Virus record (IMG/VR): IMGVR_UViG_3300009509_000009
Coordinates: 1-64,000 of that record
Reading direction: 5' to 3' (one strand)
DNA length: 64,000 bases
DNA from: a virus
Made by a program: the position numbers and the translations under genes. A model generated the notes under the pieces. It was not told where the DNA came from, did not search any database, and saw only the letters and a program-made list of their open reading frames with translations. Positions 16,790-61,444 of this stretch are shown here, in pieces (positions within the stretch are counted from its first letter, which is position 1; each line of letters begins with the position of its first letter).

Positions 16790-18010
16790 ATGATCAAGGT
16801 AGCCGGGGCTGTAGTGGACCCCTATGATGACGACTTCGCTTCCTTGAAGGACATGGCTGGAGGGCGGGGGCTCCCAGAGTTCATCAAGCAGGCAGGGATC
16901 ATGGAGCCTACGGCACTCAAGAACCTGCCTGATCATGCCTTCGCCGTCGTCATTCTTGGAGACGGTGAGCCCATGAGGAAGTTCGCGTGTGTGGATAAGG
17001 CACACACCGCAGTCAACGTGATGTACTTCACAGAGTACGGCGCTGATCTCCCCGCCCCCGTCAAGGAGAAGGTAGCCACCAATCTCTGCAAAGCCTGCGA
17101 ACATTTTGGGCTTGAGGCCCCTCCTCACATCAGGAAGGAGGCGGCTGGAGCCAAGAGACTCCTCAAGCATGACGGCGCAGAGATGATCGTGCCGGCGCGT
17201 GAGGGAGAGAAGACTTCAGAGCTCACCGGCACGATGACCATGCCGAACACGAAGCCGGTGCGCGTCAAGAAGGCGTCAGTACTCGACGAGCCATACGTGC
17301 ATGTCTCGAGCTTCATTCCCAAGACAGCTTCGACGACTCCCATGGACCCGGGTGTGTACGCTCTGGACAACGGGCAGCTCCCGCTGCTTGGATTCGACCA
17401 GGTCCTCGAGGCTGTGGACTACTTCGACAAGTATGCCATGAAGATGCACCCGAGAAAGCGCCATGATTTCGCAGTGAAGGTGGCCGCTCGGGCGGAGCAG
17501 CTCGGCATTCCCGTGTCTGAAGATCTCGAGAAGTATGGGTCGCGCAAGTACGCGCAGGCCGGCTCGATCAAGGTGGCTGTCGAGACGCGAAAGCGCATGT
17601 GGCATAGCCTTGGAGACGGGGAGCGGCACGGAATCGGTGGAGAGATGCTCGACCGTCTCTTCGAGAAAAGAGCGAGCGTCAATCCCGAGGTGTTTGCCGA
17701 ATCCCTAGCTGAGCTTGACGCGCAGCTCGGCCTGTCCCACTACTGGGATAGCGGCATTCCCGATCCCTGGTACAGCACGTTCGGGATCGAGAAGAAGGCA
17801 GCGTGGTCCTGGAATCAGGGCGGCGAGTACGTCACCGAGGATGAGCTCACGCGGCTGGCACGGGAAGAGACTGATCTCTTGGAGGATAGATTCGGGAACG
17901 ACGTGGCTAAGGGGTTGGCAAACAACCCCACGACCGTGTTCGACTCGCTTCCTCTGGATAAGAAGCGTATCATCGCTCGGATGGCCCAACAGAGGGGCTC
18001 TGGTTTGTGA
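16790..18010 (+). CDS. Putative head-associated protein with two LPDxAFA/RKF-DxAH-type repeats and many KxA motifs
   Basis: GGAGG RBS; KNLPDHAFAV...RKFACVDKAH and a weaker second copy; KQAG, KEAA, KKAS, KTAS, KRAS, KKAA. Confidence 0.6.
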   Translation: MIKVAGAVVDPYDDDFASLKDMAGGRGLPEFIKQAGIMEPTALKNLPDHAFAVVILGDGEPMRKFACVDKAHTAVNVMYFTEYGADLPAPVKEKVATNLCKACEHFGLEAPPHIRKEAAGAKRLLKHDGAEMIVPAREGEKTSELTGTMTMPNTKPVRVKKASVLDEPYVHVSSFIPKTASTTPMDPGVYALDNGQLPLLGFDQVLEAVDYFDKYAMKMHPRKRHDFAVKVAARAEQLGIPVSEDLEKYGSRKYAQAGSIKVAVETRKRMWHSLGDGERHGIGGEMLDRLFEKRASVNPEVFAESLAELDAQLGLSHYWDSGIPDPWYSTFGIEKKAAWSWNQGGEYVTEDELTRLAREETDLLEDRFGNDVAKGLANNPTTVFDSLPLDKKRIIARMAQQRGSGL

Positions 18011-18048
18011 TCACCCCGGTCAGGGAGATCGGGTAGGAGGAAAGCAAA

Positions 18049-18771
18049 ATGGCAAGTAAGGCAATGGCGCAACAGCGTGCAGCGAAGCCCCACCTGACCT
18101 CGGGGAAGGGTGGCGTGGCTGGTGAGGTGGACGATCTTCGAGGGGATGTCGACAGCGCCCTCGAGACCTTCGAGTCCCGCTCGGGCTATCCAGAGCTCGA
18201 CTACATCGACGGGGCAGGTCCGGCAGCAGCCGGCGGTGATATGGTCATGGTCGGCAGGCTTCTCCTGCAAGGTCAGGCCTTCGCCAGCCTGACGCTCGGC
18301 GCATCGCTCGACATCATCGCCAGGGTCCCCGGCAGGGCCGGCAACGACTACAGCGTGGAGGTCATCGACTCCGGCGGCGTGGGTGGACTGGCAGTGTCGT
18401 GGGCAGCAGACAAGCTCACGATCGACCTCGATGGTGCAACCCCCAACGAGGATGCCATCGCCACGGCCATCAACGACGCCGGCGTTGGGTCCCCGCTGCG
18501 AGCGAACTCAGGTGGTGGAGCGGCCTTCGGTACGGTCGCCGAGACCTCGCTGGCCGGCGGAGCTGGCGACGGCTGGAGCTGTACGGTTGGTGGCTTCGAC
18601 GCCCCGATCAAGTTCGACACGGGTGCTGCGACGTCCAACGCCAACCTCACCGAGACTCAGGTCACCGTTACTGTCCCGGCTTTGGCCCCGATCGTCGCCA
18701 CCGACAAGGCGCACGTCTCGGTCACGACGGATGGGATCCGGTCCGACCTCGGTGCGGTGGCAGTCGAGTAG
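18049..18771 (+). CDS. Putative virion structural protein (sheath-like beta-rich domain)
   Basis: AGGAGG RBS; ARVPGRAGNDYSVEV...LAGG pattern typical of sheath-associated domains. Confidence 0.5.
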   Translation: MASKAMAQQRAAKPHLTSGKGGVAGEVDDLRGDVDSALETFESRSGYPELDYIDGAGPAAAGGDMVMVGRLLLQGQAFASLTLGASLDIIARVPGRAGNDYSVEVIDSGGVGGLAVSWAADKLTIDLDGATPNEDAIATAINDAGVGSPLRANSGGGAAFGTVAETSLAGGAGDGWSCTVGGFDAPIKFDTGAATSNANLTETQVTVTVPALAPIVATDKAHVSVTTDGIRSDLGAVAVE

Positions 18772-18776
18772 TAGAG

Positions 18777-19790
18777 GTGGCTGAACGTCAGCATGAGGAT
18801 GATCTGTATCAGTTGCTTCGAGGCGTGAACAAGAATGAAGTCGCGCCTCGGGGCACTGATGCGGTTCAGCCTGCCGTCGCCTCTTATGACACCCTCATCG
18901 AGCCTCCCATAAAGGATGCTACGCCCGAGGAGGATGAGCCGACCAACGAGCCGACGGATAAAGTGCCAGAAGAGGACGGTCAGCCGCAGTCCCCAGAGGG
19001 TGGAGCCGATTACAAGCCGTTCACCCTTCGATCAGTATTCGCTCATCACGACTCTCACCCACTCCTGATGGACATGCTTCTCCTAGAGAAGTATGGACTC
19101 GACTGGTTGACGTGGGAGCCGGAGACGCTCTGGGATGCGATCTCGGAGGACTTCAAGACCACGGTAAGCACCAACAATGCCAGCATGATCCAAGCGGCGA
19201 AGACGTGCCACCTGGTCGAGACGCCTTGGGTAGCGTGGGAGATCTTCGTACCAGTCTGCCAGGCGTTCAACAACAACATTCCAAACTTCAGGACGTTCTT
19301 CAAACCTACGATTCCGCAGACGATGTTTGCGGTCGAGGTGATGAACTCTATCGACGACCGCAAGTTCAGCGAGGAGCTGGAGCGGTTCGTTGCTGCAGTC
19401 TTCCTGGACGCCAGCGTCTTCTACCTGCCGCCTCCAGTCGACTTCGCCCAGAAGATGGCGATGCAGATCGAGTATCGCTGTTCCAGATGTGGTAGAGTTG
19501 ATCTGGATGACGACAACCTCATGTGCGATTCCTGCGGCGCTCCTCAATCGGCGCTCAAGACGATTCCGAAGTGGGACCCCGAGCCTACGAAGAAGCGTTA
19601 TGAGCACATACTGTCGCAAGGAGAGGAGCATGATGTGCTGCAGGAGAAGGGGGTTGACGTCCAGGTTGCCAAGCTGCTGGTCGCCAGGAACTACCTGGAT
19701 TACAGGAAGAAGCAGCTGGCGGATCAACTAAAGGCGGTCGAGGATGAGCGACTACAACTACGATCTGGCTCTCGTAGACGGCCAGCTTGA
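18777..19790 (+). CDS. Hypothetical protein with zinc ribbon
   Basis: Start moved to the GTG after the previous stop; CSRCG...CDSCG. Confidence 0.65.
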   Translation: MAERQHEDDLYQLLRGVNKNEVAPRGTDAVQPAVASYDTLIEPPIKDATPEEDEPTNEPTDKVPEEDGQPQSPEGGADYKPFTLRSVFAHHDSHPLLMDMLLLEKYGLDWLTWEPETLWDAISEDFKTTVSTNNASMIQAAKTCHLVETPWVAWEIFVPVCQAFNNNIPNFRTFFKPTIPQTMFAVEVMNSIDDRKFSEELERFVAAVFLDASVFYLPPPVDFAQKMAMQIEYRCSRCGRVDLDDDNLMCDSCGAPQSALKTIPKWDPEPTKKRYEHILSQGEEHDVLQEKGVDVQVAKLLVARNYLDYRKKQLADQLKAVEDERLQLRSGSRRRPA

Positions 19791-20715
19791 CGAGTTTCAA
19801 AAGATCGCCTTCGTCGGTAGGGTGGCTCGAGCTCTTGGCCGTGGCACGGCTATGAGAGGTGCTGCCATAGGCGGAGGCATCGGTGCGTTGAGTGGCGGCG
19901 CTCTCGGAGCAGCTTCAGCTGACCCTTCACAGGGAACAATGGGCAGGGTTCAGGGAGCTATATCAGGAGCTCTGTCTGGCGGCATCCTTGGTGCTGGCAC
20001 CGGTACCGTAGCGACGAAGGCTGGTAGGCAGTGGATAGGACGTGCTGGTAAGGCGCAGGTGCACGGGCTGACTGGCTGGGTGCCCGGTTCAAGGAAAGCT
20101 GGCAAGGGATTCTTCGGACAGCACATGAATCCAGCAGAGAGGGCCAAGGCCCTCGAGGGCCTTGGCATCACCGCTCCGAAGGGACGACTGTCTCACGGTC
20201 AGGCGCTCGGAAAGATTCAGCAGGGCAGGCTTACTGGGAAGCTCCCATCGGGGATGCAGCAGCAGCTCGCCGATCTCTCCGTGGCACGTCACATGGCTCA
20301 GCAACAGCAGGTGAGCAAAGGACTCACGTCCGTACCAGGATTCGTCAAAGGAATGGTGAAGGACCCGACTGGCACAGCAAAGACTGGCCTCCTCGCCGCC
20401 GGCGGACTTGGTACAGCGATGACTCTTGGCTTCAGTGCTCCTGAGGCTATCCAGGCGGCCAAGGAAAGGGACATCAAGAGGCTCGGAGGATCTCTGGCGG
20501 AGACTGGATTCTACGCAATGGGCGGTGGTATCCCCATGCTTGGGTCCATGGCACTCGGAAGTGGTGTCAGACGTCTGGGGCAGGCTCCTGGCGCTCTGGT
20601 GGAGAAGGTGATGGGCCAAGGACCTCAGCCGGGTCAGCCGCAACGAACGATGGGTAGCGGCGCCCAGAGGGCTGCGGCTCAGAGGGCTGTTCACCACATG
20701 ACTAGGGAGGGCTGA
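19744..20715 (+). CDS. Glycine-zipper protein with DEFQKIA leader (putative internal/ejected virion protein)
   Basis: QLDEFQKIA followed by GAAIGGGIGALSGGALG and further GxxxG arrays. Confidence 0.65.
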   Translation: MSDYNYDLALVDGQLDEFQKIAFVGRVARALGRGTAMRGAAIGGGIGALSGGALGAASADPSQGTMGRVQGAISGALSGGILGAGTGTVATKAGRQWIGRAGKAQVHGLTGWVPGSRKAGKGFFGQHMNPAERAKALEGLGITAPKGRLSHGQALGKIQQGRLTGKLPSGMQQQLADLSVARHMAQQQQVSKGLTSVPGFVKGMVKDPTGTAKTGLLAAGGLGTAMTLGFSAPEAIQAAKERDIKRLGGSLAETGFYAMGGGIPMLGSMALGSGVRRLGQAPGALVEKVMGQGPQPGQPQRTMGSGAQRAAAQRAVHHMTREG

Positions 20716-20720
20716 GTCTG

Positions 20721-22604: not shown

Positions 22605-22605
22605 G

Positions 22606-22646: not shown

Positions 22647-22673
22647 CGTGGGGTTTCCTTGGCTACTCTTTAC

Positions 22674-23003: not shown

Positions 23004-23030
23004 GAGTAGGCTGGAAACATAGGAGAAAAT

Positions 23031-26000
23031 ATGGCCCGGCTAGACCCTAGAGAGGGGTTCGAGCTCCTCAAAGACAGGGTGACTACCGAGGTGAAGGCTG
23101 CGTTCCCCCAGGAGGGGAACGATCACATTCTCGACATCGAGAATGTGGAGATCCAGGACGAGCTGGACCCCGAGGATATTGAGGGTCAGAAGAAAGCGAA
23201 GCTCGGTGGATCAACCTGGGGAGTCCCCGTGAAAGCAGAGTTCGTCTTGAAGGACAAGGCGAGCGGCAAGGTCATCAACCGAAGTAAGATCAAGGTGGCG
23301 ACGATCCCGAAGCATACTCGTCGTCATTCCTTCATAGTCGGTGGATCTGAGTACCAGGTGGACAACCAGTGGCGGTTGAAGCCCGGTATCTACACACGTG
23401 TCGCGCAGAACGGTCAGCTCGAGTCACGGTTCAACTTCCAGGGCAAGATGAACCTCGATATGATCTTCGACCCCAAGAGCAGGAAGTTTCAGCTCAAGCA
23501 CGGTGGGTCGAAGCCGCCGCTCTATCCAATACTCAAGGCGGTTGGCGTTGACGACGACGCGCTACAGCAGGCGTGGGGCAAAGAGATCCTCAACGCCAAC
23601 AAGACAACGCCGAATGGAAAGGCGCTGAACGTAGAGAAGCTAGCGATCGGTTTCGCCAAGAGACTCGATCCAAACAAAGACGTCAAGAACTTCGACGACG
23701 CTGGAGATGTCATTCGTGAATACATGGGTACGGCGGAGCTCAGACCCGACGTGACCAAGCTCACGCTAGGCAAGGAGTTCAATACCATCACGCCTGAAGC
23801 ACTCACGAGGACGTCGGGTAGACTTCTTGGTGTAGCTAGAGGCGACAAGCCAGACGTGCGGGATGCTCTGCAGTTCAAAGATCTTCTCAGCACGGAGGAC
23901 TTCATCGCTGAGCGTCTTCAGCAAAGCGCCAAGATCATCAAGCGCAGGATACAGAACAACATAGATCGAAGGACCACCGTTCGTGAGATCGTGGGGCCAG
24001 ACATTTTCGATCGACCCGTCAAAGAGTTCTTCTCGAAGACGTCGCTGGCGAATACACCTCAGCAGGTCAATCCACTCGAGATGTTGTCCGGCCAGCAGCG
24101 TACCACTATCACTGGAGAGGGTGGAGTCAAGAGCGCACACAAGATCCAAGAGGACGCAAAGCTAGTAGATCCGTCACACTTCGGTGTGCTCGACCCACTA
24201 CACACTCCGGAGTCCGACAAGACAGGAGTGACACTACACCTTGCCATGAGCGCCGTGAAGAAGGGCAACAAGGCCTTCGTCCCACTGCACAATGTCAAGA
24301 CTGGAAAGGTAGAGTATCTCGATCCAGAGACGGTCAATGAGAAGATCGTGGCAATGCCGGATGAGGGTAGGTGGGACAAGGGTAAGTGGGTGCCCAACGC
24401 GAAGAAGGTCAAGGCGAGTACGCTGGGCAATGAGATTCGAGACGTCGACTCCTCCAAGGTCCAGTACGTCATGAAGAATCCTGGTCAGATGTTCTCTCTC
24501 GCCACCAACATGGTTCCGTTCCTCTCCTGCGACTCCCCGAATAGATCATCCATGGCTGGGAAGCAGATGGAGCAGGCGATCTCGCTGAAGTATAGAGAGC
24601 CGCCTCTAGTTCAGGTAGCGCGAGGAGACGGGACCAAGAAGACCTTCGACGAGTTCGTCGGGCGATATGCCTCTCATGAATCCCCAGTTGATGGGAAGGT
24701 GACCAACATCACTGACACGTTCATGGAGGTCAAGTCGGGGCGCAAGACACACAAGGTCCAGCTGTACAAGGACTATCCCCTCAATGACAAGAAGGGTCTT
24801 CTCCAGAGTACCCCTACGGTGAAGGTAGGGGACAAGGTGATGAAAGGGCAGACTGTAGCCGATACCAACTTCACAAAGGGCGGAGTCTACGCGCCTGGAG
24901 TGAACCTCAACATCGGGTACACGCCGTGGAAGGGCTACAACTTCGAGGACGGTGTGGTGATCTCTGAGTCTGCTGCGAAGAAGCTGACTTCAGAGCACAT
25001 GCACAAGAAGACCCTGTCCACAAAGGAGGCGAAAGCTCCCGGCAAGGAAGTCTTCATGTCCCACTTTGCCAGCAGTCTGGACAAGGAGCAGGCAGAGAAG
25101 CTGGACAGAGACGGCATCATCAAGCCGGGCATGAGGATCAGAAAGGGCGACACTCTCATCGCTGCAGTGGCCGACGCCCCGCCCACTACTGAGAATCAGA
25201 TGTTCAAGAATCTCCACCGATCATTGGTGCAGCCATTCGACAACCGATCTATCACCTGGGAAGAAGACCAGGAGGGTGAAGTCGTCAATGTCACCAAGAA
25301 GGGGAAGAAGATCCAGGTTCACGTCAAGACTGAAGAGCCGATGACTGTTGGCGACAAGATGGTTGGGCGCCACGGCAATAAGGGAATCGTCACCAAGATC
25401 TTGCCAGACAACGAGATGCCGTCGACCAAAGATGGCAAGCCCCTCGAGGTGCTGATGAATCCAATCGGTATTGCTGGTCGGATGAACATCGGTCAGGTGC
25501 TTGAGACAGCAGCCTCTAAGGTAGCTGAGAAGCGCGGACGCCCGCTCAAGATCACAAACTTTGGAGTCAGTGATAGCCGCACGGAGATCGAGAATCTGCT
25601 GAAGCGGCATGGAGTATCAGATCGAGAGACCATTGTAGATCCAAAAGACGGGACGGAGATAGAGGGCATCCAGGTTGGAAAGCAGTACATCCTCAAGCTC
25701 CAACACCAAGTAGATAAGAAGATGTCTGCTCGAGACAGAGCTGGCTACGATCGTAACTTGATCCCAAAGGGCGGCGGGAAGCACGGTGCTCAGGCGCTAG
25801 GAGCTCTCGGCATGTACGCCATGTTAGCTCACGGGGCTAAGCACAACATCCGTGAGATGCAGACCTACAAGTCTGATAAGGCGCAGAACGACGATCTTTG
25901 GAGCGCCATTCAGACTGGTGAGCCACTGCCTCCTCCGAAGACTACCTTCGGGTATCAGAAGTTCGAGTCCTACCTCAAGGGAATGGGCGTCGACACGCAG

Positions 26001-29000
26001 AAGGATGGGAACTCCCTGAATCTCATACCACTGACTGACAAGCAGGTGGAGGAGATGTCTTCTGGGGAACTCAAGGATGCGGGGCGGGCTGTTCGAGGGT
26101 ACAAGATTGGATCGAAGCGCAGAGGCTCAATAGATCCTGAGAAGTCTGGTCTATTCGATCCGCAGATCACCGGGGGCTTGGATGGCACCAGGTGGTCTCA
26201 CATCAACCTAGCAGAGCCAGTGCCAAATCCACTCTTCGAGAAAGCAGTCCGTAGTCTCACCGGGATTCGTGGACCTCAGTTCAATCGTCTGATCGAAGGC
26301 AAGGACGGCGTCGATAAAGACGGAAAGATAGTTCCTCCGGGTACTCAGGGAGCTCTCTACGGTCCTCAGTCCATTGGTCTCATGCTGGATAAGGTAGACA
26401 TCAACAAGGACCTGCAGGCCGCGCAAGCGAAGCTCCCAACCATCAAGAATCGTCAGCCACTGAATGAGACACGCCGAAAGATCAAGTACCTGCAGGCCCT
26501 GCAGAAGGTTGGCCTGTCCCCTCGTGAAGCGTACATGACCTCGAAGGTTCCAGTTCTTCCTCCAGCGATGAGGCCTCTATCAATGCTCGAGGACGGAGCT
26601 CTGCAGTTCGATGATCTCAACCAGCTCTACAAGGACGTGGCCCTACTTGATCAGCAGATCAAGGAGATGCCCAGCTTCGCGCCAGACAGCGCGAAGGCAG
26701 AGGCTAGGGCTGACGTATACGATCGGATGAAGGCCCTAACTGGTCTTGGTGGCTCCCTCAAGGGAAGGTACAAGGGGATAGCCGACATCATAGCCGGAGA
26801 CAATCCGAAAAGTGGTTACGCCCAGGACAAGCTGATCAAGAGGAAGATGGACCTGTCCATGAGGTCCACTATCGTGCCCGAGCCTTCATTGTCCTTGGAC
26901 GAAGTAGCCATTCCTCGCAAGGCAGCTATGGAGATCTACAAGCCCTTCATCGTCAGGGAGCTCCGTATGTCCACGGGTTCCGGACCTCTCACTGCCAAGG
27001 AGATGGTGGAGGCCAATCACCCGGCTGCTCGGGAGGCCCTGAACCGAGTGGTTGAGGAGCGACCCCTCCTCATGAAGCGCGACCCAGTACTCCACAAGTA
27101 CGGCATTCAGGCCTTCAAGCCTAAGATCGTAGAGGGCAAGGCCATCAAGATACACCCCCTTGTGTGCTCCGGATTCAACGCAGACTTCGACGGGGACACC
27201 ATGAGCGCCACAGTACCCATCACCGAGGAGGCTGTGGATGAAGCCCGAAAGATGTTTCCGTCGAAGATGCTGTTCAATCCAGCCACCAAGGGAGTCATGT
27301 ACACGCCGGCCCATGAAGCTCAGGTTGGTCTCTACATGATGACGGACGTAAAGAAGAAAACGAACTACCAGTTCAAAGATCAAGCCGCCCTCGAGCGCGC
27401 AGTGAAAGAGAAGAAGCTGGGTCCTAATGATGCTGCCAAAGTAGGCGGGAACTTCACAACACTAGATCGGTTGAGGCTCAACGCCACCCTGCCAACACAA
27501 CTGCAGGGAGGAAAGCTGCTCACTGATCTAGACTACCGCTTTACCAAGAAGGACCAGGGTCAGTTCTTCAAGCAGATGGCAGAGACGGACGAGAAGGGTT
27601 TCCCGATCAACATAGATAAGATGAAGGACGTGGGAAACCTGAAGGTCACTCATGGAGGGTTCAGCTTCGGGCTCAGTGACTTCAAAGTACACAAGGACAT
27701 TCGAGATCCGATCATGCGTGAGGCGGATAGGAGAGCGTCAGCTCTGGATTTGTCCAAGAAGAACGACATGAACAAGTTCGTCGACATCTATGAAGGTGCG
27801 ATGACCAAGATGAAGGATCGGCTGGATGTCAGAGTCAAGGAGCTCAGCACAAAGAACTCTTTGGCAATGCTCGAGACGGCAGCTGGGATCAAGGGTAAAG
27901 GGTACGCCCAGCTCACCACAGCTCCAGGTCTGTTCGTTGACGCAAAGGGAGAGGTAGTCGCCAGTCCAGTGAGGAAGTCGTACTCTGAGGGTCTCTCCGC
28001 TTCTGACTACTGGGCGTCAGTGAGCGGTGGACGCAAAGGAATCATCCAGCGAACGCAGTCTACAGCCAAGCCAGGCTATCTCACCAAGCTCATGATGAAC
28101 TCGGTGATGGACACCTTGGTGCAGGAGGACGACTGCGGTACCGATCGTGGGGTCAGTCTCAACATAGATGAACCAGACCTTATCGGTAGGTACACTACGG
28201 CCCCAATAAAGATCGGAAGCACGACGTTCAAGCCAGGAACTCTGGTCACTGCTGACATCGTCAACAAGGCCAAGAATGCTAAGGTCACCAGGATCGTTAG
28301 CCGATCTCCGATGCGTTGCAATCACGCACACGGCGTATGCGCGAAGTGCATGGGGCTCAACGAGAGAGGAGAGCACCACGGGCTCGGAACCAACATCGGC
28401 GTGCTGGCTGCCCAGGCTATCGGAGAGCGCGGAACCCAGCTCGCTATGAAGGCGTTCCACTCAGGCGGGGTGTACGAGGGTAAAGCCGCGCAGGAGAGGT
28501 CGATCACTGGTGGTGGGTTCGAGCGCGCCGTCACTCTGCTCTCCATGCCGAAGCAAGTGAAGGGATCTGCCAAGCTGGCTATCGCTTCTGGTAAGGTAGA
28601 GGCGGTGAAGAAAGATCCAGCGGGTGGGTTCGATGTGAAGATAGGCGGCGTCAAGCACTACATTCCTGCTGATCGTACACCGCTACCCGATCTGAAGAAG
28701 GGTAAGGCTTTCCGAAAAGGTGATCCTCTGACTAAGGGTCCTATCAATCCGAGGGAGCTGCTTCCTCTTACCAACATGAACAAGGTCCAGGGATACCTGG
28801 CTTCGGAGCTACACAGTCTCTATGCCCCAGAAGGAATCAGACGTAGAAACTCCGAGGTCCTCGTCAGGTCACTATCCAACGTCACCAAGGTCGAGGACTC
28901 TGGAGATAGCTCGTCGTGGATCAGGGGAGACTTTGCTCCGACTGCTGTAGTCAACGAGTGGAATCGTAAGAACGCCAAGCGCGGGCTGAAACCTGTACAG

Positions 29001-29213
29001 CACACGCCAGTTCTTCGTGGGGTCAAGACTATCCCCGAAGATGTGCAGACAGATTGGCTAGCCCGATTGAATCATGAGAACATCAGGTCTACCCTAGTAG
29101 AAGCGGCACAACAGGGTTGGGCGAGTAATCTTCACGGTGATCACCCAATCCCGCCGATGATCGTGGGTAAGGAGTTCGGCAAGGGAACAAAGGATAAGCC
29201 CTGGTCGTACTAA
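23031..29213 (+). CDS. rpoBC: Single-chain DNA-directed RNA polymerase, fused bacterial-type beta and beta' subunits
   Basis: Beta motifs GYNFEDG, GDKMVGRHGNKG, NPIGIAGRMNIGQ, KLQHQV; beta' motifs RSTIVP, RDPVLH, GFNADFDGD, GGRKG...AKPGYLT, DCGT/CNHAHGVCAKC, AAQAIGERGTQLAMKAFHSGG. Confidence 0.97.
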   Translation: MARLDPREGFELLKDRVTTEVKAAFPQEGNDHILDIENVEIQDELDPEDIEGQKKAKLGGSTWGVPVKAEFVLKDKASGKVINRSKIKVATIPKHTRRHSFIVGGSEYQVDNQWRLKPGIYTRVAQNGQLESRFNFQGKMNLDMIFDPKSRKFQLKHGGSKPPLYPILKAVGVDDDALQQAWGKEILNANKTTPNGKALNVEKLAIGFAKRLDPNKDVKNFDDAGDVIREYMGTAELRPDVTKLTLGKEFNTITPEALTRTSGRLLGVARGDKPDVRDALQFKDLLSTEDFIAERLQQSAKIIKRRIQNNIDRRTTVREIVGPDIFDRPVKEFFSKTSLANTPQQVNPLEMLSGQQRTTITGEGGVKSAHKIQEDAKLVDPSHFGVLDPLHTPESDKTGVTLHLAMSAVKKGNKAFVPLHNVKTGKVEYLDPETVNEKIVAMPDEGRWDKGKWVPNAKKVKASTLGNEIRDVDSSKVQYVMKNPGQMFSLATNMVPFLSCDSPNRSSMAGKQMEQAISLKYREPPLVQVARGDGTKKTFDEFVGRYASHESPVDGKVTNITDTFMEVKSGRKTHKVQLYKDYPLNDKKGLLQSTPTVKVGDKVMKGQTVADTNFTKGGVYAPGVNLNIGYTPWKGYNFEDGVVISESAAKKLTSEHMHKKTLSTKEAKAPGKEVFMSHFASSLDKEQAEKLDRDGIIKPGMRIRKGDTLIAAVADAPPTTENQMFKNLHRSLVQPFDNRSITWEEDQEGEVVNVTKKGKKIQVHVKTEEPMTVGDKMVGRHGNKGIVTKILPDNEMPSTKDGKPLEVLMNPIGIAGRMNIGQVLETAASKVAEKRGRPLKITNFGVSDSRTEIENLLKRHGVSDRETIVDPKDGTEIEGIQVGKQYILKLQHQVDKKMSARDRAGYDRNLIPKGGGKHGAQALGALGMYAMLAHGAKHNIREMQTYKSDKAQNDDLWSAIQTGEPLPPPKTTFGYQKFESYLKGMGVDTQKDGNSLNLIPLTDKQVEEMSSGELKDAGRAVRGYKIGSKRRGSIDPEKSGLFDPQITGGLDGTRWSHINLAEPVPNPLFEKAVRSLTGIRGPQFNRLIEGKDGVDKDGKIVPPGTQGALYGPQSIGLMLDKVDINKDLQAAQAKLPTIKNRQPLNETRRKIKYLQALQKVGLSPREAYMTSKVPVLPPAMRPLSMLEDGALQFDDLNQLYKDVALLDQQIKEMPSFAPDSAKAEARADVYDRMKALTGLGGSLKGRYKGIADIIAGDNPKSGYAQDKLIKRKMDLSMRSTIVPEPSLSLDEVAIPRKAAMEIYKPFIVRELRMSTGSGPLTAKEMVEANHPAAREALNRVVEERPLLMKRDPVLHKYGIQAFKPKIVEGKAIKIHPLVCSGFNADFDGDTMSATVPITEEAVDEARKMFPSKMLFNPATKGVMYTPAHEAQVGLYMMTDVKKKTNYQFKDQAALERAVKEKKLGPNDAAKVGGNFTTLDRLRLNATLPTQLQGGKLLTDLDYRFTKKDQGQFFKQMAETDEKGFPINIDKMKDVGNLKVTHGGFSFGLSDFKVHKDIRDPIMREADRRASALDLSKKNDMNKFVDIYEGAMTKMKDRLDVRVKELSTKNSLAMLETAAGIKGKGYAQLTTAPGLFVDAKGEVVASPVRKSYSEGLSASDYWASVSGGRKGIIQRTQSTAKPGYLTKLMMNSVMDTLVQEDDCGTDRGVSLNIDEPDLIGRYTTAPIKIGSTTFKPGTLVTADIVNKAKNAKVTRIVSRSPMRCNHAHGVCAKCMGLNERGEHHGLGTNIGVLAAQAIGERGTQLAMKAFHSGGVYEGKAAQERSITGGGFERAVTLLSMPKQVKGSAKLAIASGKVEAVKKDPAGGFDVKIGGVKHYIPADRTPLPDLKKGKAFRKGDPLTKGPINPRELLPLTNMNKVQGYLASELHSLYAPEGIRRRNSEVLVRSLSNVTKVEDSGDSSSWIRGDFAPTAVVNEWNRKNAKRGLKPVQHTPVLRGVKTIPEDVQTDWLARLNHENIRSTLVEAAQQGWASNLHGDHPIPPMIVGKEFGKGTKDKPWSY

Positions 29214-30799: not shown

Positions 30800-31089
30800 T
30801 GGCCATGGACATCGACAGTCTGACCGAGGCGATCGTCACCAACTACAGTGCGGAAATGAAAGCCTCCTTCCCAGAGGTGGTGAAGAGCGTTACTGTAGAA
30901 CAGATACCGAAGGAAGATGGTAGCTTTGAGTACGAAACCACGCCTCAGATGGGCCCAGTAGAGGTGGACGAGGCGAAGTTCAGGCCGATGGCGAAGGCAA
31001 TAGCCAAGGCTGTGATAGAGCACATACAGTCGAGCGCCTACGCCGACGATAACGACGGCACTGCGGGCGGTGATTGGAGGATCAAATGA
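30799..31089 (+). CDS. Small baseplate-associated hypothetical protein
   Basis: Coupled to the spike gene; AIAKAVIEHI helix. Confidence 0.55.
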   Translation: MAMDIDSLTEAIVTNYSAEMKASFPEVVKSVTVEQIPKEDGSFEYETTPQMGPVEVDEAKFRPMAKAIAKAVIEHIQSSAYADDNDGTAGGDWRIK

Positions 31090-43730: not shown

Positions 43731-43739
43731 CATGAGCTC

Positions 43740-44036
43740 ATGTCGGGCCTGGGTGTGAGAACGGTGGAAGCTATGATGGACGAGCTACAGAAGATCGCTA
43801 AGTTTTCTGTTTCAGCTCCGTCCATCAAGGCTCCACCTGCACCTGGAGGAGATGGATCGGTGCTGAAGGCAACTCCAGCGTCGCCTGTCTCCCCGAAAGC
43901 GATCTCTGCCAAGGCTCTGAAGTCCACGAACCTAACGAAGACGAACTACACCAACGTCTCCACTGAGGTGCCAGCACCACAGATCGGTCAGACGATGGAA
44001 CAGAAGGCTTTGCAGCCTCCTGTAGTTCGGTCATAG
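43740..44036 (+). CDS. Small protein with MMDELQKIA leader
   Basis: Leader followed by Pro/Ser/Lys-rich low-complexity body. Confidence 0.6.
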   Translation: MSGLGVRTVEAMMDELQKIAKFSVSAPSIKAPPAPGGDGSVLKATPASPVSPKAISAKALKSTNLTKTNYTNVSTEVPAPQIGQTMEQKALQPPVVRS

Positions 44037-44046
44037 GAGGTAGCCG

Positions 44047-45198: not shown

Positions 45199-45208
45199 AA
45201 AGGAGAGC

Positions 45209-45577
45209 ATGATGGATAAGATCGCAGCACACGATGCGTTCGCCGCGCTCTCCGAAGTGCCTGGCACTCTCAGGGCACAGCAGACCCGCATCCGGGAGCT
45301 CACGAGTGAGAACCATGAGCTTCGGGAGAAGGTCGCCAGCTACGAGGTTCGTGACCGAGTCGAGAAGATCGCCTCTGAGATGGAGGAGAAGGGAATCGAC
45401 GCTGGTCTGAGCCACGAGGAGAAGCTGGAGATGCTCCAGAAGAAGGCGTCCGAGGGAACCCTCGACGTCGTGGAGCACGCGGTGAAGCTGGCGGCTTCGG
45501 GAAGCCCCTTCGGAGAGTTGGGCGACCGTCCCAGCGCAGGAGGTAGTTTGGTGGGCTACCTTCTCGAGGATGAGTAG
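45209..45577 (+). CDS. Putative scaffolding protein (coiled coil)
   Basis: Upstream of decoration and capsid genes; five KxA sites in 122 aa. Confidence 0.6.
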   Translation: MMDKIAAHDAFAALSEVPGTLRAQQTRIRELTSENHELREKVASYEVRDRVEKIASEMEEKGIDAGLSHEEKLEMLQKKASEGTLDVVEHAVKLAASGSPFGELGDRPSAGGSLVGYLLEDE

Positions 45578-48685: not shown

Positions 48686-49147
48686 ATGGCCTCTTGGGAA
48701 AAGCGTAAGTTCGGATCCTCGCAGGAGCTCGAGGAGTATCTCAATGGCGCCCTCATCAGCAGCCTCAATCTGCACGATGGCGCGTTCATGGACGGTCAGA
48801 CGTTCGTGTTTGAGGTAGACGGTGGTGGCGACACCACGGTCAACTTCCCTGCCAAGAGCAGGAAGTGGACTCTCCAGGAGATCATCGACCAGATCAACGC
48901 CTCTGAAGCCGGTCTTGCTCATATCAGGACTGAAGTAAGACCGGGCTCCAACAAACCGATCCGGAAGCTCAAGCTGCAGAAGGACCTGACTTCGTTCGTG
49001 GTCAAGAACACAGGTACTGCCAACGATGAACTTGGATTCCCCACCGGCTCCAACACACCAGCAGTGTATGTCGCTCCGGCTGATCTCGAGTTCATCAAGC
49101 AGGTCCCCGGAGAACAGGACAGCTGGATCGTCTGGAGGTACGCATAA
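48686..49147 (+). CDS. Putative structural protein
   Basis: GGAGG RBS; beta-rich with IIDQINA motif like sheath-associated domains. Confidence 0.55.
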   Translation: MASWEKRKFGSSQELEEYLNGALISSLNLHDGAFMDGQTFVFEVDGGGDTTVNFPAKSRKWTLQEIIDQINASEAGLAHIRTEVRPGSNKPIRKLKLQKDLTSFVVKNTGTANDELGFPTGSNTPAVYVAPADLEFIKQVPGEQDSWIVWRYA

Positions 49148-51636
49148 TGTCAGTCTTCGACAAGCTCGTTGAGGAGCGGTATGAGATTCCGTTCAGCACG
49201 CGAGCGGCATACTTCAATGCGATCATGCAGCCCTTCGGAGTTCCTCCAGAACCCGTGTTCACCAAAGAGGCTCAAGCGGGCATGTTGAAGATCGCTCTGG
49301 TCCTCAACAAAGCCAAGGACGAAGCCGAAGCTATCCAGGCCATGCAGAGAGAGGCCCTGAAGGACCCCAACGTTCAGCAGGCTATGGACTATCAGCAGGC
49401 TTTGGCCGAGCGCGAAGATGCCATGGCTCAGCTCGAGCAGATGAACCAACAGGTCATCGAGGCTGAGACGAGAGCTCAAGAGGCAGAGCAGCGAGCCATG
49501 CAGGCTGAGCAGGGGGCAGAAGAGACCGGCATGCAGGCTCAAGAACTTCAAGCTCAGCTCGAGCAGGAGCAGCAGGGCAGGCAAGAGGCCACTGCGATGG
49601 CCGTGCAGGCTCGTGATCAGAGTCTGCAGGAGCAGATCTCACTTCAGGAGCAGAAACAGACCATCGCGCAGCAGGCTGAAGCATTCCAGCAGCAAGCCAA
49701 TATGCTCAGCCAACAGCTTCGTCAAACAGCGGCTATGCCGACAGCACCGGCAGCTCCTCCCCCTGGTGGGGCTCCTGGTGCGGAGGAGATGCCTCCACCA
49801 GCCACTGCGGATGCTGCTCAAGAACAGCAGGAAGCTGCAAATGCGGAGCAGGAAGCCGCCGTCCAAGGTGAGCAAGCTCAGCAGGCTACTGCTGAAGATC
49901 AGGCGAAGCAAGAGCAGATGGCTGCCCAGGGTGGCGGTCCAAGCCCCGAAGAGGAGGCAGCGGCCCAAGAGGAGCAGGCTGCTGCTCAAGAGCAGGCCAT
50001 GGCGCAGGAACAGCAGATGGCCGAACAACAGGCCATGGCTGAACAGGCCATGCAGTCGGCAGCAATGCCTAAGCAAGGGATGGCTCTCTTCTTCCAGAAA
50101 GCGGCGATGTTGAAGAGGGCCCAAGGAGAAGATGTGGTTCCGCCGGCTCCGCCGGTTGCTTCAGCCCCCGCTCAAGAGAGTCCTCTAGAAGACGAGGACG
50201 ATGAGGAGGAATACGACGAGGTAGGAGAACTCCTGGATGAGATCGTCGACATCAGAGAAAGACTCATCCAGCTTGGTCTCACTCCAGAGGAGATCTCTGA
50301 GTACATAGACCTTGTTGATCAAGGGGATGAAGAAGCTGCCGATGAAGGACTCCAAGAGGCTATGCAGTCTGAGGGTCCTGTGAAAGCAGCGGCAGCCAGG
50401 ATCAGTCTCACGAGACTATTCCATCTCAACAAGACTGCGTCAGCTGCTATGTCCCCCCAAACTCGAGGAGCTATCATCGGCGCGGCCATCGGCGCCCTCG
50501 GTGGCGTAGCCTCTGGTCTCGTCCCTGGTGCTCTGGCTGGAAAGAGCGACTCTCCTGGAGCTCCTACAGGCGGTGCTCTTCGTGGAGGAGCCTCCGGAGC
50601 CATGGCTGGCGCCGTGAGCGGAGCCACGGGTGGAGCTCTCCTTGGACATGCTCTCGGGAGCGGGGAAGTTGGGAAGCAGATGGGCAAGGCCATTGGCGGT
50701 GGCGCTCTGGTTCTTGGTGCTCCGATCGCCGGGGCTCTCAGTGGTCTTCGCAGCGCAAGATCACAGGACTACCGAGTCAAGCAGGCCGCCATGGAGAAGG
50801 CCGCCGCCAATTTCGGGCTCGGCCCGAAGTCACTCAACCTGGCCAAGCCCGGCACCAGAGTGCAAGCCCGCATGACCAACGCTCGCAATGTTGGTAAGCC
50901 CACCGGCAAGCCGGGGAACATCGGCCAGCTCACTGAGTCGGCCTTCATGCCGAAGACCGGATCGGAGAAGTGCTCCGAGATGGGGAAGTGCTCTGGCTGT
51001 GGCAAGATGGCCAAGCTCTCTGAGATGGGGAAGTGTGGCATGTGCGGCGCCAAGCACGCAGCGATGAGCAAGAGCGCTGCGGGGGTCATGGTTTCCCCAA
51101 AAGGATCACGCCGCCTCACTGAACAAGAGGAGGCGGCACTCCTTATGAATGCAGAGCGACTCCCCAAAGAGATCATCGCTGATGTGAACCGTGGGCTCGC
51201 TGGGACCATGCAGGACATGATGCCAAAGACCGCCGGTGAGGTCACCAACAGGCTGCTTCGGTTGGCCAAGCGCAAGGCTGTTGGTGCGGGAGTTGGTGCA
51301 GTAGCTGGCGGCGGTGTTGGTGCTGCCGAGGTTGCGGGCCACGAGATCAAACATAAAGGCAAGGGCAAGGACGTTCCGTCTGATAAGGAGCTCAAGGTTG
51401 AGGGAAAGCTCCACGCAGCGAAGCTCAAGGCTCAGAGTGATCCGTCCTACGCCAATAAGATCAACGTCGCTCGGCTTCGGCTGAAGCGAGACATAGAGCA
51501 GACCTCGAGGGAGAATCCCAAGGGTCATATTGCTCGACGAGCTGCGGAAGGTGCAATCGTTGGTGCGATTGCCGAAGGACACGCACGCGGCCTTGGAAGA
51601 AAAGGACTTGAGGCTCTGAAAGGGGCTGGGCGTTAG
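49147..51636 (+). CDS. Large KxA-segmented protein (Gln-rich coiled coil, acidic block, glycine zipper, Cys peptide, basic block)
   Basis: Compositionally distinct blocks separated by KEA, KIA, KAA, KRA, KTAS, KQAA, KHAA, KSAA, KTAG. Confidence 0.7.
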   Translation: MSVFDKLVEERYEIPFSTRAAYFNAIMQPFGVPPEPVFTKEAQAGMLKIALVLNKAKDEAEAIQAMQREALKDPNVQQAMDYQQALAEREDAMAQLEQMNQQVIEAETRAQEAEQRAMQAEQGAEETGMQAQELQAQLEQEQQGRQEATAMAVQARDQSLQEQISLQEQKQTIAQQAEAFQQQANMLSQQLRQTAAMPTAPAAPPPGGAPGAEEMPPPATADAAQEQQEAANAEQEAAVQGEQAQQATAEDQAKQEQMAAQGGGPSPEEEAAAQEEQAAAQEQAMAQEQQMAEQQAMAEQAMQSAAMPKQGMALFFQKAAMLKRAQGEDVVPPAPPVASAPAQESPLEDEDDEEEYDEVGELLDEIVDIRERLIQLGLTPEEISEYIDLVDQGDEEAADEGLQEAMQSEGPVKAAAARISLTRLFHLNKTASAAMSPQTRGAIIGAAIGALGGVASGLVPGALAGKSDSPGAPTGGALRGGASGAMAGAVSGATGGALLGHALGSGEVGKQMGKAIGGGALVLGAPIAGALSGLRSARSQDYRVKQAAMEKAAANFGLGPKSLNLAKPGTRVQARMTNARNVGKPTGKPGNIGQLTESAFMPKTGSEKCSEMGKCSGCGKMAKLSEMGKCGMCGAKHAAMSKSAAGVMVSPKGSRRLTEQEEAALLMNAERLPKEIIADVNRGLAGTMQDMMPKTAGEVTNRLLRLAKRKAVGAGVGAVAGGGVGAAEVAGHEIKHKGKGKDVPSDKELKVEGKLHAAKLKAQSDPSYANKINVARLRLKRDIEQTSRENPKGHIARRAAEGAIVGAIAEGHARGLGRKGLEALKGAGR

Positions 51637-51658
51637 GCCAGGAAGATAGGAGATCAAG

Positions 51659-52969
51659 ATGCTCAACCAGTGGCTGAATGATCTGGCGCAGGAGGAACAC
51701 GAGAAGACGGCCTCCGCCCAGTTCGAGGAAGTTCTCAAGGACATGGACATCCCTGAGCTCAGGGCGTTCTTGGACATCGGCAAGGAGAAGACGGCGTTTG
51801 ATCCCCGCCTGGCGCTTGCCTCTGGAGCTCGAGGAGCTCTTGGCGGAGCCGTTGGTGGCGGCCTTCTCGGCGCTGCTGGGGGAGCTCTCGGTGCCGAACA
51901 GGGTCAGCGTGGAGAGGGCGCCATTGCTGGTCTCCGACGCGGGGCGGCCATTGGAGCCATTGGTGGTGGCCTCGCATCTGGCATAGCGGGCGGCGTAGCT
52001 GGTAAGGGTTCCGCCTACGATCCTGCCGCACAGCGTCAGATGCAGGAAGACTTGATCGACGAGCAGCTGAGCCGCATAAACGCGGGAAAGGAACCCATGG
52101 GCATTGGCGAGACCATGCGGAAGATGAGGAGTAGGATCAGCCCTCGAGACATGAAGATCCAACAAGCTGACATGGCCGCTCAACTCGCTTCTCGAGCTGG
52201 TGCTGCTGGCGCTGGATATCACGCTGGTGCTACCCTACCAGATCAAGAGGTAGCCAAAGAAGCATCGGCCATGTTCGCTGCCGCTGATGCCGCCGGACGG
52301 TCACTGGCCCACTCTATCGCCAAAGAGGCCAAGGTGGATCCAGAGGTGCAGGCAGCTGCGATCAGAGGCGGAGCTATCGGGGGTGGGCTCGAGGGCGCTG
52401 CCCGAGGAATCCTGCACGGCGGGGGTATTCCAGGGGCTGCCATTGGCGGTGGTTTTGGCGCTGGATTCGGAGCGCTTGGTGGCCGTATACATGAGTCTGA
52501 CTTTGCTGAGCGTCACCCGATTGCTGGTCGGTGGGTGGCTCCCGTTCTGGTAGGCGGCCTTGGTGGAACCGCTGGGGCTTACCTCGGAGCAGAGGGAGCC
52601 AGGGCCAAGCAACGAGGAGACCTTGAGGCCGTCGAGCAGGAGGCTGCGGCTGCAGCTCCTGGCGGAGGTATGGCCGGCACCCTCGGAGCAGGCGCTGGAT
52701 CTCTTGCCAGGAAGGCCAGAGAGGCTAAGAGAGAAGCAGAGGCAGCCTACGGCTCGGCCAAGACCGCCTCGTTCCGTGGTGCCATCCAGAAGCTGGCTGC
52801 AGAGGGCAGGCTCCGCACCTTCACTGAGAAGACGGCAGCCATGACTCCGAATGACGTCGCCAAGGTACAGGCTGTCAGCGACGCCATGAAGAAGACAAAG
52901 GGCATGTCCCTTCAGCAGCGCAAGCAGGTCATGAAGGGCGTCGGCAAGGCCATTCCTGGCGGCAAGTAG
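51659..52969 (+). CDS. Glycine-zipper protein, KxA-segmented
   Basis: EKTAS, EKTAF, KEAS, KTAS, KTAA; several GxxxG arrays; FAAADAAGRSLAHS. Confidence 0.7.
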   Translation: MLNQWLNDLAQEEHEKTASAQFEEVLKDMDIPELRAFLDIGKEKTAFDPRLALASGARGALGGAVGGGLLGAAGGALGAEQGQRGEGAIAGLRRGAAIGAIGGGLASGIAGGVAGKGSAYDPAAQRQMQEDLIDEQLSRINAGKEPMGIGETMRKMRSRISPRDMKIQQADMAAQLASRAGAAGAGYHAGATLPDQEVAKEASAMFAAADAAGRSLAHSIAKEAKVDPEVQAAAIRGGAIGGGLEGAARGILHGGGIPGAAIGGGFGAGFGALGGRIHESDFAERHPIAGRWVAPVLVGGLGGTAGAYLGAEGARAKQRGDLEAVEQEAAAAAPGGGMAGTLGAGAGSLARKAREAKREAEAAYGSAKTASFRGAIQKLAAEGRLRTFTEKTAAMTPNDVAKVQAVSDAMKKTKGMSLQQRKQVMKGVGKAIPGGK

Positions 52970-58602: not shown

Positions 58603-58611
58603 GAGGGGCCC

Positions 58612-59760: not shown

Positions 59761-59791
59761 GCTACGTGATACAACAAGTGAGGAGGCTCTG

Positions 59792-60544
59792 ATGGCCGGT
59801 TTCGCACAATGGAATCCCCTGAACCACTTCGTTCAGGGTGGGATGCCCGACGGGCGCTTCGTCTCCGGAGCCTTGACTCTGGTCGCCGCTGGTCCACCTC
59901 GTCTGGCCCAGATGGGAGGTAGCGTTCAGAGCGCTGCCAATGCGATCAACGACGAGGCGGCGGATATCGTCTTCCCGATCGGGATCACCCAGAACATCAA
60001 CATGTCCCAGAACAAGACCTTCATGAGGATCTGGGAGCTGGGATCCGAACGCAGCTACTTCATCGGTGGCCGCACAGTCGGGCAGTTGGCTCTCTCGAGA
60101 GTCTACTACCACGGCCCATCACTTCTGCGAGTGCTCTACGCCTACTACAGGGACGAGCGCGGCAGGGTCCAGGTCCCGTGGGTCTTCCCGAATCTGGGCG
60201 CCACTCAGATGTTCAACGAGCACGATGTGATCGTGCCTCCTGGCTACGAGAACCTGTTCCTGAACCTGGCATCAGACCTGTTCAACCAGCCCATCGGGCT
60301 CTTGGTCTACGTCAGGGACTCGAACCTCAAGACCATGGGGGCCATCTACCTCGAGGCCTGCTACATCCCGAACCACACGTGGGCGACGGATGCACAGGGC
60401 ACCATCGTGCAAGAGACCGTGGCAGTTCAGTACGAGCGTGTCATGCCGGTCAACGTCTCGGCAGTCACTCTCGTTACGGGGCTAGCCAAGTCCACGGGTG
60501 GCGCTGAGTCGGGCGGCGGCTTCCACCTCACCCTCGGCTTCTAG
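59792..60544 (+). CDS. Putative tail tube protein
   Basis: IGITQNINMSQNK...IWELGSERSYFIGGRTVG; near sheath; GAGGAGG RBS. Confidence 0.7.
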   Translation: MAGFAQWNPLNHFVQGGMPDGRFVSGALTLVAAGPPRLAQMGGSVQSAANAINDEAADIVFPIGITQNINMSQNKTFMRIWELGSERSYFIGGRTVGQLALSRVYYHGPSLLRVLYAYYRDERGRVQVPWVFPNLGATQMFNEHDVIVPPGYENLFLNLASDLFNQPIGLLVYVRDSNLKTMGAIYLEACYIPNHTWATDAQGTIVQETVAVQYERVMPVNVSAVTLVTGLAKSTGGAESGGGFHLTLGF

Positions 60545-60556
60545 ACCCGGAGGTGG

Positions 60557-61444
60557 GTGATGCTGCAAGACCAGAGGTTGATGGCTGACGTCCTTGTGGA
60601 GATGTCCAATGGGCACTTTCGCAAGCTGGCGTCCCTGTCTGCCAGGACGAGGGGAGCCGTCGAGCTCGGCAAGGTCGCTGCAGCGCGCTTCTCTCCTCCT
60701 ACAGAGGATGAGTACCTCCAGAAGATGGCGGCTTCTCAGCTGGGAGAAGCGTACCTTGAGAAGTTGGCTCGAGCTGTCATCAACGAGGAGGTCTCCTGGG
60801 ACGACCTTTCTGACCTGGAGAAGACTGCCCTCGGCATTGGTGGTATCGGCAGAGCCCTCAAGGGCGTTGGCCAGTTCTTCACCAAGGGCAAGACTGTCAG
60901 GATGGCTGGTGGCCCAGGAAGCGCCTCGGGGGGCATAGGGGCTCGTCTCCGGAGCGCTTGGAACAGGGGCACAGGCCAGCAGTGGAAGAACCTGGCCGGC
61001 AGCAAGGGCGGAGGCCCTGGTATCTCAGGGCCAAGGACGCAGACCTTCAAGGGCGGCACGAGGCCCGCAGGGGCTGGAGCAGGCCCGTACAGAGGGGCTG
61101 CAGCTCAGGGACCAGCCACGGCGGTACGACCTCCTCCCCAGCAGGCCGGCGCTCAGATGCGCCAGAGGTTCCAGCAGCTCAACCAGGGAGCTCAGCCACT
61201 GCAGGGTAACAGAGCGGTCCAGAGGGCCTCTGCAGCGGCCGGAGGAACTCCAGGTGCCAGGAAGCCTCTTCTCTCCTGGAGGACGAAGGCGGGCCTGGGA
61301 GCCGCAGCTGTGGGCGCCGGAGGCCTCTACCTCGGAGGCAAGGCTCTGGACACGGCCAACACCTTCCTCCATCAGCAACAGCCGGGAGCCTACCAGTACG
61401 GTATGGGGGCTCCAACCCCCTTCATGCAGCCCCAAGGCATGTAG
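60557..61444 (+). CDS. Gly-rich basic protein with N-terminal tandem KxA helices
   Basis: RKLAS, GKVAA, QKMAA, EKLA, EKTAL, then GIGGIGRALKGVGQFF and a C-terminal hydrophobic helix. Confidence 0.7.
   Translation: MMLQDQRLMADVLVEMSNGHFRKLASLSARTRGAVELGKVAAARFSPPTEDEYLQKMAASQLGEAYLEKLARAVINEEVSWDDLSDLEKTALGIGGIGRALKGVGQFFTKGKTVRMAGGPGSASGGIGARLRSAWNRGTGQQWKNLAGSKGGGPGISGPRTQTFKGGTRPAGAGAGPYRGAAAQGPATAVRPPPQQAGAQMRQRFQQLNQGAQPLQGNRAVQRASAAAGGTPGARKPLLSWRTKAGLGAAAVGAGGLYLGGKALDTANTFLHQQQPGAYQYGMGAPTPFMQPQGM

Follow-up and report, generated by a model that had tools for sequence, protein, structure and literature searches.

The window analysed here covers the first 64,000 nucleotides of a viral contig of 79,665 bp (IMG/VR record IMGVR_UViG_3300009509_000009). 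Up to ~16.6 kb its genes point leftward; most of those over positions 16,790-61,444 point rightward, and there a head module encodes proteins carrying a short, repeated peptide motif built around a lysine and an alanine. This motif, [L/I/M/F]-x-K-[T/I/V/L/x]-A-[S/A/G], is probably the recognition signal of the phage's own prohead serine protease, the predicted product of the open reading frame (ORF) starting at 40755, as judged from sequence comparison and a structure model. We infer cleavage at K-x-A by this enzyme from the observed enrichment of the motif, its restriction to certain proteins and its conservation, together with the fold and the invariant His, Ser and His residues of the enzyme.

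The motif was counted in a curated set of 67 ORFs of the window, with expectations taken from within-protein shuffles. K-T-A-[S/A] was found 12 times against 0.92 expected (z 11.3), and the more general K.A[SA], in which the dot stands for any residue, 56 times against 19.2 (z 8.6). A preliminary description of this DNA had reported about 12 copies of the former, 11 of them in named rightward ORFs, and had proposed that K.A[SA] enrichment be measured against composition-matched shuffles. Both the number and the placement were reproduced, with sites in ORFs 16790, 31074 (called 31086 there, from an alternative start), 39028 (2), 40292, 42846 (2), 49147 and 51659 (3), and the shuffles were positive overall and per ORF. 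The twelfth site is located in a small leftward ORF at 4491-4709. As also reported, KTA is absent from the 2060-amino-acid (aa) RNA polymerase, the tail sheath and PolA, the latter taken here as the 725-aa leftward ORF at 4987-7164.

Shuffling in blocks of 10, 20 or 40 residues left the excess of KTA[SA] and K.A[SA] unchanged (z 8.6-13.4), and local Ala/Lys richness is thus not its cause. In an unbiased scan of all 4-mers only DDDD ranked above KTAS (8 against 0.32, P 2e-9). Among 3-mers KTA was the best non-homopolymer, with KIA and KVA near the top, and K.A led the gapped residue pairs of the head module (42 against 17.4). Chance is excluded as the origin of the motif. Codons differ synonymously among the 12 KTA[SA] sites, which indicates selection on the peptide and not on the DNA. 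Three further candidates were set aside: a DNA-level motif is ruled out by this codon variation, an artefact of composition or low complexity by the block shuffles and the control patterns given below, and internal repeats or paralogy behind the KTAS copies are thought unlikely, the flanks of the 12 sites having no similarity evident by eye.

Ten ORFs were individually enriched (p<0.01 on at least one of three motif counts), namely 16790, 31074, 39028, 40755, 42846, 44047, 45209, 49147, 51659 and 60557. The protease ORF is among them, in agreement with its earlier portrayal as rich in the motif. About 15 ORFs had been called dense in motif variants; 15 rightward ORFs do contain at least one K.A[SA], but only about ten are densely marked. 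In the per-ORF shuffles the motif was at expectation in all leftward genes and in the RNA polymerase, the terminase, the body of the major capsid protein (MCP), the sheath and the other tail genes. For the RNA polymerase the counts were 0 against 1.95 for K.A[SA] and 1 against 3.98 for hydrophobic-x-K-x-A, a depletion that is not significant. The motif is therefore enriched in head, scaffold-like and internal proteins but not in other virion or non-virion proteins, as in a prohead-protease code. The 15.6 kb of the contig past the window contain no further carrier except a low-complexity Lys/Ala-rich protein. This 251-aa protein (64510-65265, + strand; 20% Lys, 17.5% Ala) is made of A-K-K-A-A-A and P-A-K-K-A-A repeats and resembles histone H1 or a DNA-condensing protein; its K.A count is compositional. 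The carriers and related proteins of the window are the following.

16790..18010, + strand: 406-aa protein; 14 K.A against 3.4 expected.
19744..20715, + strand: protein with an acidic leader that ends in K-I-A or K-T-A.
31074..33089, + strand: 671-aa protein; 14 K.A sites, 11 with a hydrophobic residue at -2.
39028..39939, + strand: 303-aa head-module protein; KTAA, KTAS, KQAS, KLA and KVA sites.
42846..43730, + strand: 294-aa head-module protein; two KTAS and two further K.A[SA] sites.
44047..45198, + strand: 383-aa Ala-rich, CxxC-containing head-module protein; 10 K.A sites.
45209..45577, + strand: 122-aa helical scaffold-like protein; 5 K.A[SA] against 0.17 expected, p<0.0002.
46094..47218, + strand: MCP (phrog_2522, major head protein); not otherwise motif-enriched.
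49147..52969, + strand: two fast-evolving Ala-rich proteins of 829 and 436 aa, between the connector and tail genes.
60557..61444, + strand: 295-aa protein; three sites in its first 60 residues.

Several motif carriers contain 15-21% Ala, and nearly all motif-bearing proteins of the window are without a match in PHROGs or Pfam. The five sites in the 45209 product agree with those listed earlier for a 122-aa scaffold candidate. The 829- and 436-aa proteins contain one and three KTA[SA], plus five and two further K.A[SA], respectively. K.A is found 7 times against 1.4 in the 39028 protein (p 0.0002), and hydrophobic-x-K-x-A 5 times against 0.42 in the 60557 protein (p<0.0002).

The shape of the motif was derived from 1,120 distinct pooled instances in five protein families of the window and its relatives. 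Counted from the Lys, the preferences are L/I/M/F at -2, E/V at -1, then K, T/L/V/I, A, S/A/G and often another A. The core is hydrophobic-x-K-x-A-(S/A) and the extended form [L/I/M/F]-x-K-[T/I/V/L]-A-[S/A].

Relatives of the window phage were collected from IMG/VR, in which at least 200 contigs encode a related MCP; 80 were kept for comparison (70-79% identical). Among close relatives several genomes are complete; these measure 185-195 kb and carry direct terminal repeats, so that the 79.7-kb contig is a fragment of less than half of the phage genome. Of the cultured phages, Salmonella phage Arash is the nearest, with an MCP 28% identical. GenBank phages gave no match in a megablast search with 20 kb of window sequence, and searches with the MCP and the protease found no phiKZ-like match.

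Conservation in homologous phage contigs, a second check proposed in the preliminary description, was also observed. In the orthologue families of 39028, 40755, 42846, 44047 and 45209 (mean identity 25-45%), K.A occurs at 2-4 times and K[TIVL]A at 4-10 times expectation, whereas A.K, KA, K..A and R.A, taken as controls, mostly stay at ~1x in the same families. Terminase, MCP, connector and tail families show K.A at ~1x. At many aligned sites the K and the A are kept in 85-100% of sequences and their neighbours in 5-50%, so the motif is retained amid diverging flanks. Sites 34 and 250 of the 39028 protein have K and A at 0.91-0.93 between flanks at 0.02-0.5, and its orthologues average 10.0 K.A against 2.5 expected. 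For site 111 of the 42846 protein the values are 1.00 for I and 0.96 for both K and A, and for sites 81, 297 and 307 of the 44047 protein 1.00 for K and 0.85-1.00 for A (20 orthologues, 37% identity). K53-I-A55 is the conserved site of the 45209 protein (K53 0.90, A55 0.98 in 60 orthologues of 35% mean identity), whose orthologues contain a mean of 4.5 K.A against 1.3.

The larger proteins behave similarly. Orthologues of 16790 in five complete relatives (33-39% identity) have 10-14 K.A against ~3, with several positions conserved, and those of 31074 in five complete genomes (32-33% identity) have 13-17 against 3-4, sites 19, 263, 477, 507 and 585 being positionally conserved. The fast-evolving ORFs syntenic to the 49147-52969 region (relatives L005-L085), most of them without a BLAST match to the window, contain 184 K.A[SA] against 69.6. 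They thus retain the motif along with size and an Ala content of 14-23%, a combination typical of internal or ejection proteins. In Arash gp218-225, K.A is the most enriched gapped pair (44 against 19.7, P 1.6e-6), followed by L.K; the carriers are gp220, gp223 and gp225, with sites such as I-E-K-T-A-S-A, L-V-K-E-A-S-V and L-E-K-A-A-A-V. Bacillus phage G has a weaker excess, strongest in its protease homologue gp19 (8 against 2.5).

The motif also closes N-terminal leaders. Besides the 19744 protein, the proteins at 39936, 40292, 43740, 53857 and 51659 begin with acidic leaders of 14-24 residues that end in K-I-A or K-T-A (DEFQ-KIA, DELQ-KIA, DELI-KIA and MIE-KTA are examples). They recall the targeting peptides of the T4 internal proteins, which end in a gp21 site. 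The MCP possibly has a short leader of this kind, ending at K24-I-A26. K-[I/V/L/M]-A is found at this position in nearly all N-termini of 51 distinct relatives (one K-I-S among the 40 listed), and Arash MCP gp226 has K-E-A at the matching place. The motif-bearing proteins would be head-internal substrates, to judge from where their genes lie and from virion proteomics of the syntenic Arash genes. As a separate observation on the 44047 protein, it contains several CxxC pairs and weak zinc-ribbon matches, which is odd for a scaffold-like protein; the rightward proteins in general have a strong excess of C..C pairs (17 against 1.7).

The candidate enzyme is encoded within the same module, and its principal features are these.

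40755..42764, + strand: candidate prohead protease precursor of 669 aa; catalytic domain at ~35-307, followed by a ~360-aa C-terminal extension.
40848..40856, + strand: K32-V-A34, candidate N-terminal autoprocessing site; the family K.A before GAGE.
41121-41123, + strand: His123 codon, invariant in 55 diverse homologues.
41289..41291, + strand: Ser179 codon (VSMGC), candidate nucleophile, invariant in the 55 homologues.
41379-41381, + strand: His209 codon, likewise invariant in the 55.
41676..41684, + strand: K308-T-A310, candidate C-terminal release site after the protease domain.

An AlphaFold model of residues 28-282, built on a 55-sequence alignment, reached a predicted local distance difference test (pLDDT) score of 92.3, an earlier model on 15 sequences having reached only 61.5. 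Its closest structure, as defined by VIA-align, is T4 gp21 (5jbl_A; Z 9.4, root-mean-square deviation 2.7 Å, 132 of 165 residues aligned). Herpesvirus proteases also match, from varicella-zoster virus (VZV; 1vzv, Z 7.7), human cytomegalovirus (HCMV; 8j3s, Z 6.1) and Kaposi's sarcoma-associated herpesvirus (Z 4.1), and unrelated MCE domains score Z ~5, below gp21, VZV and HCMV. Foldseek agrees weakly (5jbl probability 0.92, E 0.055). By this model the domain belongs to the gp21/assemblin fold (clan SH), and the order of H123, S179 and H209 is the His-Ser-His of that clan. The identification of the 40755 product as a protease in the preliminary description is supported by this fold and by the invariance of the Ser of VSMGC and of the two His.

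None of the Pfam/MEROPS S77, S78 and S21 family hidden Markov models matched the domain, and no PHROG function was found for the 40755 product. On sequence grounds the domain is a separate family, which comprises at least 2,868 clusters at 50% identity (E<=0.001) and includes matches in Vibrio phages D69, D148 and D181 and in Bacillus phage G. A study of 2025 lists gp19, the phage G member, as a head maturation protease (PMC12484599). The gene lies in a head module, with the large terminase (TerL) at 35583, the protease at 40755, the scaffold-like genes at 42846-45577 and the MCP at 46094, and Arash gp222 to gp226 show the same order.

In some relatives the protease gene is interrupted by inteins near the GAGEYW and VSMGC motifs (homologues L081:3661-6651, L041:435-3560 and L006:8249-11278). 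The intein of L081 follows directly after GA.EYWS and has a LAGLIDADG-like block, and that of L041 is located at the Cys of VSMGC. Many family matches are 900-1690 aa long with 2-4 matched stretches. Inteins typically sit at functionally essential sites, and the insertion points are conserved, probably catalytic sites.

Enzyme and motif are linked by the position of the motif at the borders of the catalytic domain, as read from the sequences. Among the 40 representatives with enough N-terminal sequence, 39 have a K.A at a near-fixed distance before GAGE (31-37 residues in most, up to 39; chance ~38%), with the consensus [L/F/M]-E-K-T-A-[A/S/G]. In the window protein this site is K32-V-A34, placed in a low-confidence linker of the first model, the one on the 15-sequence alignment. 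On the other side, FIGAD is followed by a K.A at a distance of 15-100 residues in 98 of 100 representatives, typically as E-K-[T/A]-A-S at the first site, and in the family alignment consensus the Lys columns are nearly invariant past the protease domain. T4 gp21 and herpesvirus assemblin, at its R site, are known examples of a protease bordered by its own cleavage motif. The protease domain of SPN3US gp245 is likewise bracketed by its own substrate motif, at self-release sites (PMC10052503).

We propose the following course of events. The N-terminal domain of the 669-aa 40755-42764 product would act as the capsid-maturation protease, its precursor being built into the procapsid. Cuts at K32-V-A34 and K308-T-A310 would let the catalytic domain free itself. 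It may then trim the N-terminal leaders of several small proteins, perhaps including the MCP, and make multiple cuts in the scaffold-like and internal proteins 39028, 42846, 44047, 45209, 49147 and 51659, and probably in 16790, 31074 and 60557.

If cleavage occurs, the scissile bond would likely lie after the Ala, as the preliminary description had proposed for the 40755 protease, with K as P3, A as P1 and S/A as P1', by analogy with the P3-x-P1 rule of the characterised relatives; in every one of these that we know of, P3 and P1 are the two dominant positions. The residue after the Ala is A, S or G in 33 of the 39 N-terminal sites of the protease family, and such a small residue fits a P1' position. 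A cut after the Lys is the alternative, less likely but of appreciable probability.

Several observations weigh against the proposed cleavage. Cleavage has so far been observed in no member of this phage group, and the proteomics of Arash and phage G, based on tryptic searches, report no processing. The syntenic counterparts Arash gp220-225 were detected in purified virions at a peptide coverage of 80-100%; fragments, if made, would thus stay in the particle, or cleavage would be partial. Some sites of the window are not conserved in orthologues (site 269 of 42846, sites 41 and 93 of 45209), and many sites of the scaffold-like proteins fall in probable Ala/Lys-rich helices. As for the enzyme, neither the protease nor any of its 55 homologues has a Pfam match at E<=0.01, and searches of the PDB by sequence and profile with the protease domain gave only chance matches, so that its assignment rests on fold and conserved residues. 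H123, S179 and H209 are candidate catalytic residues by invariance and order. The Arash virion list itself contains 116 proteins, with evident non-structural enzymes among them, and a complex prediction of the protease domain with the 45209 protein scored 0.00, a value that counts neither for nor against binding.

A motif that is conserved, confined to head-module proteins and placed at the end of leaders resembling targeting peptides could instead be an uncleaved linear signal, serving incorporation into the procapsid core or docking to the portal, the shell or a non-catalytic part of the protease; the recovery of the Arash counterparts from virions at such coverage does not need cleavage either. 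We regard this as improbable. With as many as 14 copies distributed over a single protein, the motif resembles a degradation code more than a docking signal, and it brackets the protease domain throughout the family. The module that encodes the motif proteins also encodes an enzyme of the gp21/assemblin fold with invariant Ser and His, and wherever such a system has been characterised, cleavage takes place at the repeated motif (PMC10052503).

The motif might also be a structural by-product of helical proteins rich in Ala and Lys, such as coiled-coil or scaffold-like proteins, an explanation that the Ala content of several carriers and the clearly helical 45209 family would suit. It appears quite unlikely, since the excess persists in shuffles of 10-40-residue blocks and the control patterns are mostly unenriched in the same proteins. 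In addition, some sites stand in Pro/Thr-containing contexts that are not Ala-rich (F-I-P-K-T-A-S-T-T-P, for example), K and A form conserved islands amid diverged flanks, and the hydrophobic preference at -2 with T/I/V/L at +1 follows no heptad pattern. Finally, the motif might be cleaved or modified by an enzyme other than the 40755 product, such as a protease of the host or an enzyme that modifies Lys. The link drawn here between enzyme and motif is one of sequence, and in staphylococcal phage 80alpha a host protease is known to process capsid proteins. This alternative is very improbable, however: motif and protease family co-occur in uncultured soil and water phages, Salmonella phage Arash and Bacillus phage G, which have unrelated hosts, and the motif flanks the 40755 protease domain itself.

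Recognition by the 40755 protease thus remains our preferred reading, and it may extend further. Cleavage as K-x-A↓ could be a specificity shared by the whole protease superfamily, which includes ~190 kb environmental myophages, Salmonella phage Arash and, at 0.5 Mb, Bacillus phage G, with the acidic K-I-A/K-T-A leaders as transferable capsid-targeting peptides. We put this forward tentatively, as an idea with somewhat less than an even chance. If correct, it would allow proteome-wide prediction of mature head contents.

Other landmarks of the rightward region are the following.

20721, + strand: portal-like protein, 31% identical to Arash portal gp204; weak Pfam SPP1_portal match.
23031..29213, + strand: fused beta-beta' RNA polymerase of 2060 aa (Pfam Rpb2_6, Rpb1_2, Rpb1_5), used as the negative control.
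35583, + strand: TerL.
55150, + strand: tail sheath; 1150 aa from the start codon chosen here.

The portal, RNA polymerase, protease, MCP and two tail-side proteins are the only Arash proteins that can still be aligned to the window. The beta and beta' subunits of the polymerase are fused in one ORF directly downstream of the portal gene, whereas in Arash they are split into gp206 and gp216. Arash gp206 is the most abundant protein in virion mass spectrometry, which suggests a packaged virion RNA polymerase.

No report of a Lys/Ala prohead-protease motif was found in the searchable literature. Most likely, the K-x-A code is a specificity new to prohead proteases, and it belongs to a branch of the gp21/assemblin fold that is very abundant but orphan at the sequence level. 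If true, a Lys-x-Ala code would widen the range of specificities known for this ancient class of enzymes and bring the phage enzymes nearer to herpesvirus assemblin with its Ala↓Ser rule. For thousands of uncultured large phages it would become possible to predict mature proteins, propeptides and packaged cargo. Should the cut fall after the Lys, standard tryptic proteomics would miss it, which is worth bearing in mind in virion mass spectrometry of this group.

To our knowledge, cleavage codes are established for few phage prohead proteases, namely those of T4 and phiKZ/SPN3US and single sites in HK97-like phages, and all described multi-substrate codes end in Glu. T4 gp21 (MEROPS S77) is the best structural match to the 40755 domain and is also encoded in the head module. 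Its code, like the one proposed here, is a short P3-x-P1 motif present in many copies in scaffold and internal proteins, at leader ends and in its own precursor. There is no similarity at the sequence level, however; the window motif would have Ala (or Lys) at P1 in place of Glu and Lys at P3 in place of Leu/Ile, and the 40755 protein, at 669 aa, has a long C-terminal extension. HK97 gp4 (MEROPS S78, Pfam PF04586), also a prohead serine protease, belongs to the same clan and has an x-S-x-G-like serine motif. It differs in that none of the 55 family members has a Pfam S78 match and in that HK97 removes a single delta domain, without a repeated code.

The T4 code is L/I-x-E and that of phiKZ/SPN3US A-x-E (PMC10052503). 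In the latter group one self-cleaving protease (phiKZ gp175, SPN3US gp245) processes many head and ejection proteins at A/S/G-x-E (PMC10052503, PMC5694885). These are large-genome myophages in which, as in the window, motif islands are conserved in diverged proteins (PMC10052503, PMC5694885). Unlike theirs, the window motif is K-x-A without Glu, belongs to another phage lineage and is a predicted code.

Herpesvirus assemblin (MEROPS S21), which cleaves V/L/I-x-A↓S at its R and M sites, differs from the window system in its aliphatic P3 where the window would have Lys, in its one scaffold substrate where the window would have many, and in not being a bacteriophage enzyme. The two nevertheless share the fold class, and the invariant residues of the window protein, candidates for its catalytic residues, come in the order His-Ser-His as well. 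A cut after the Ala would also give the window enzyme the P1 Ala and P1' Ser of assemblin, and its candidate release site likewise lies between the protease domain and a scaffold-like C-terminal part.

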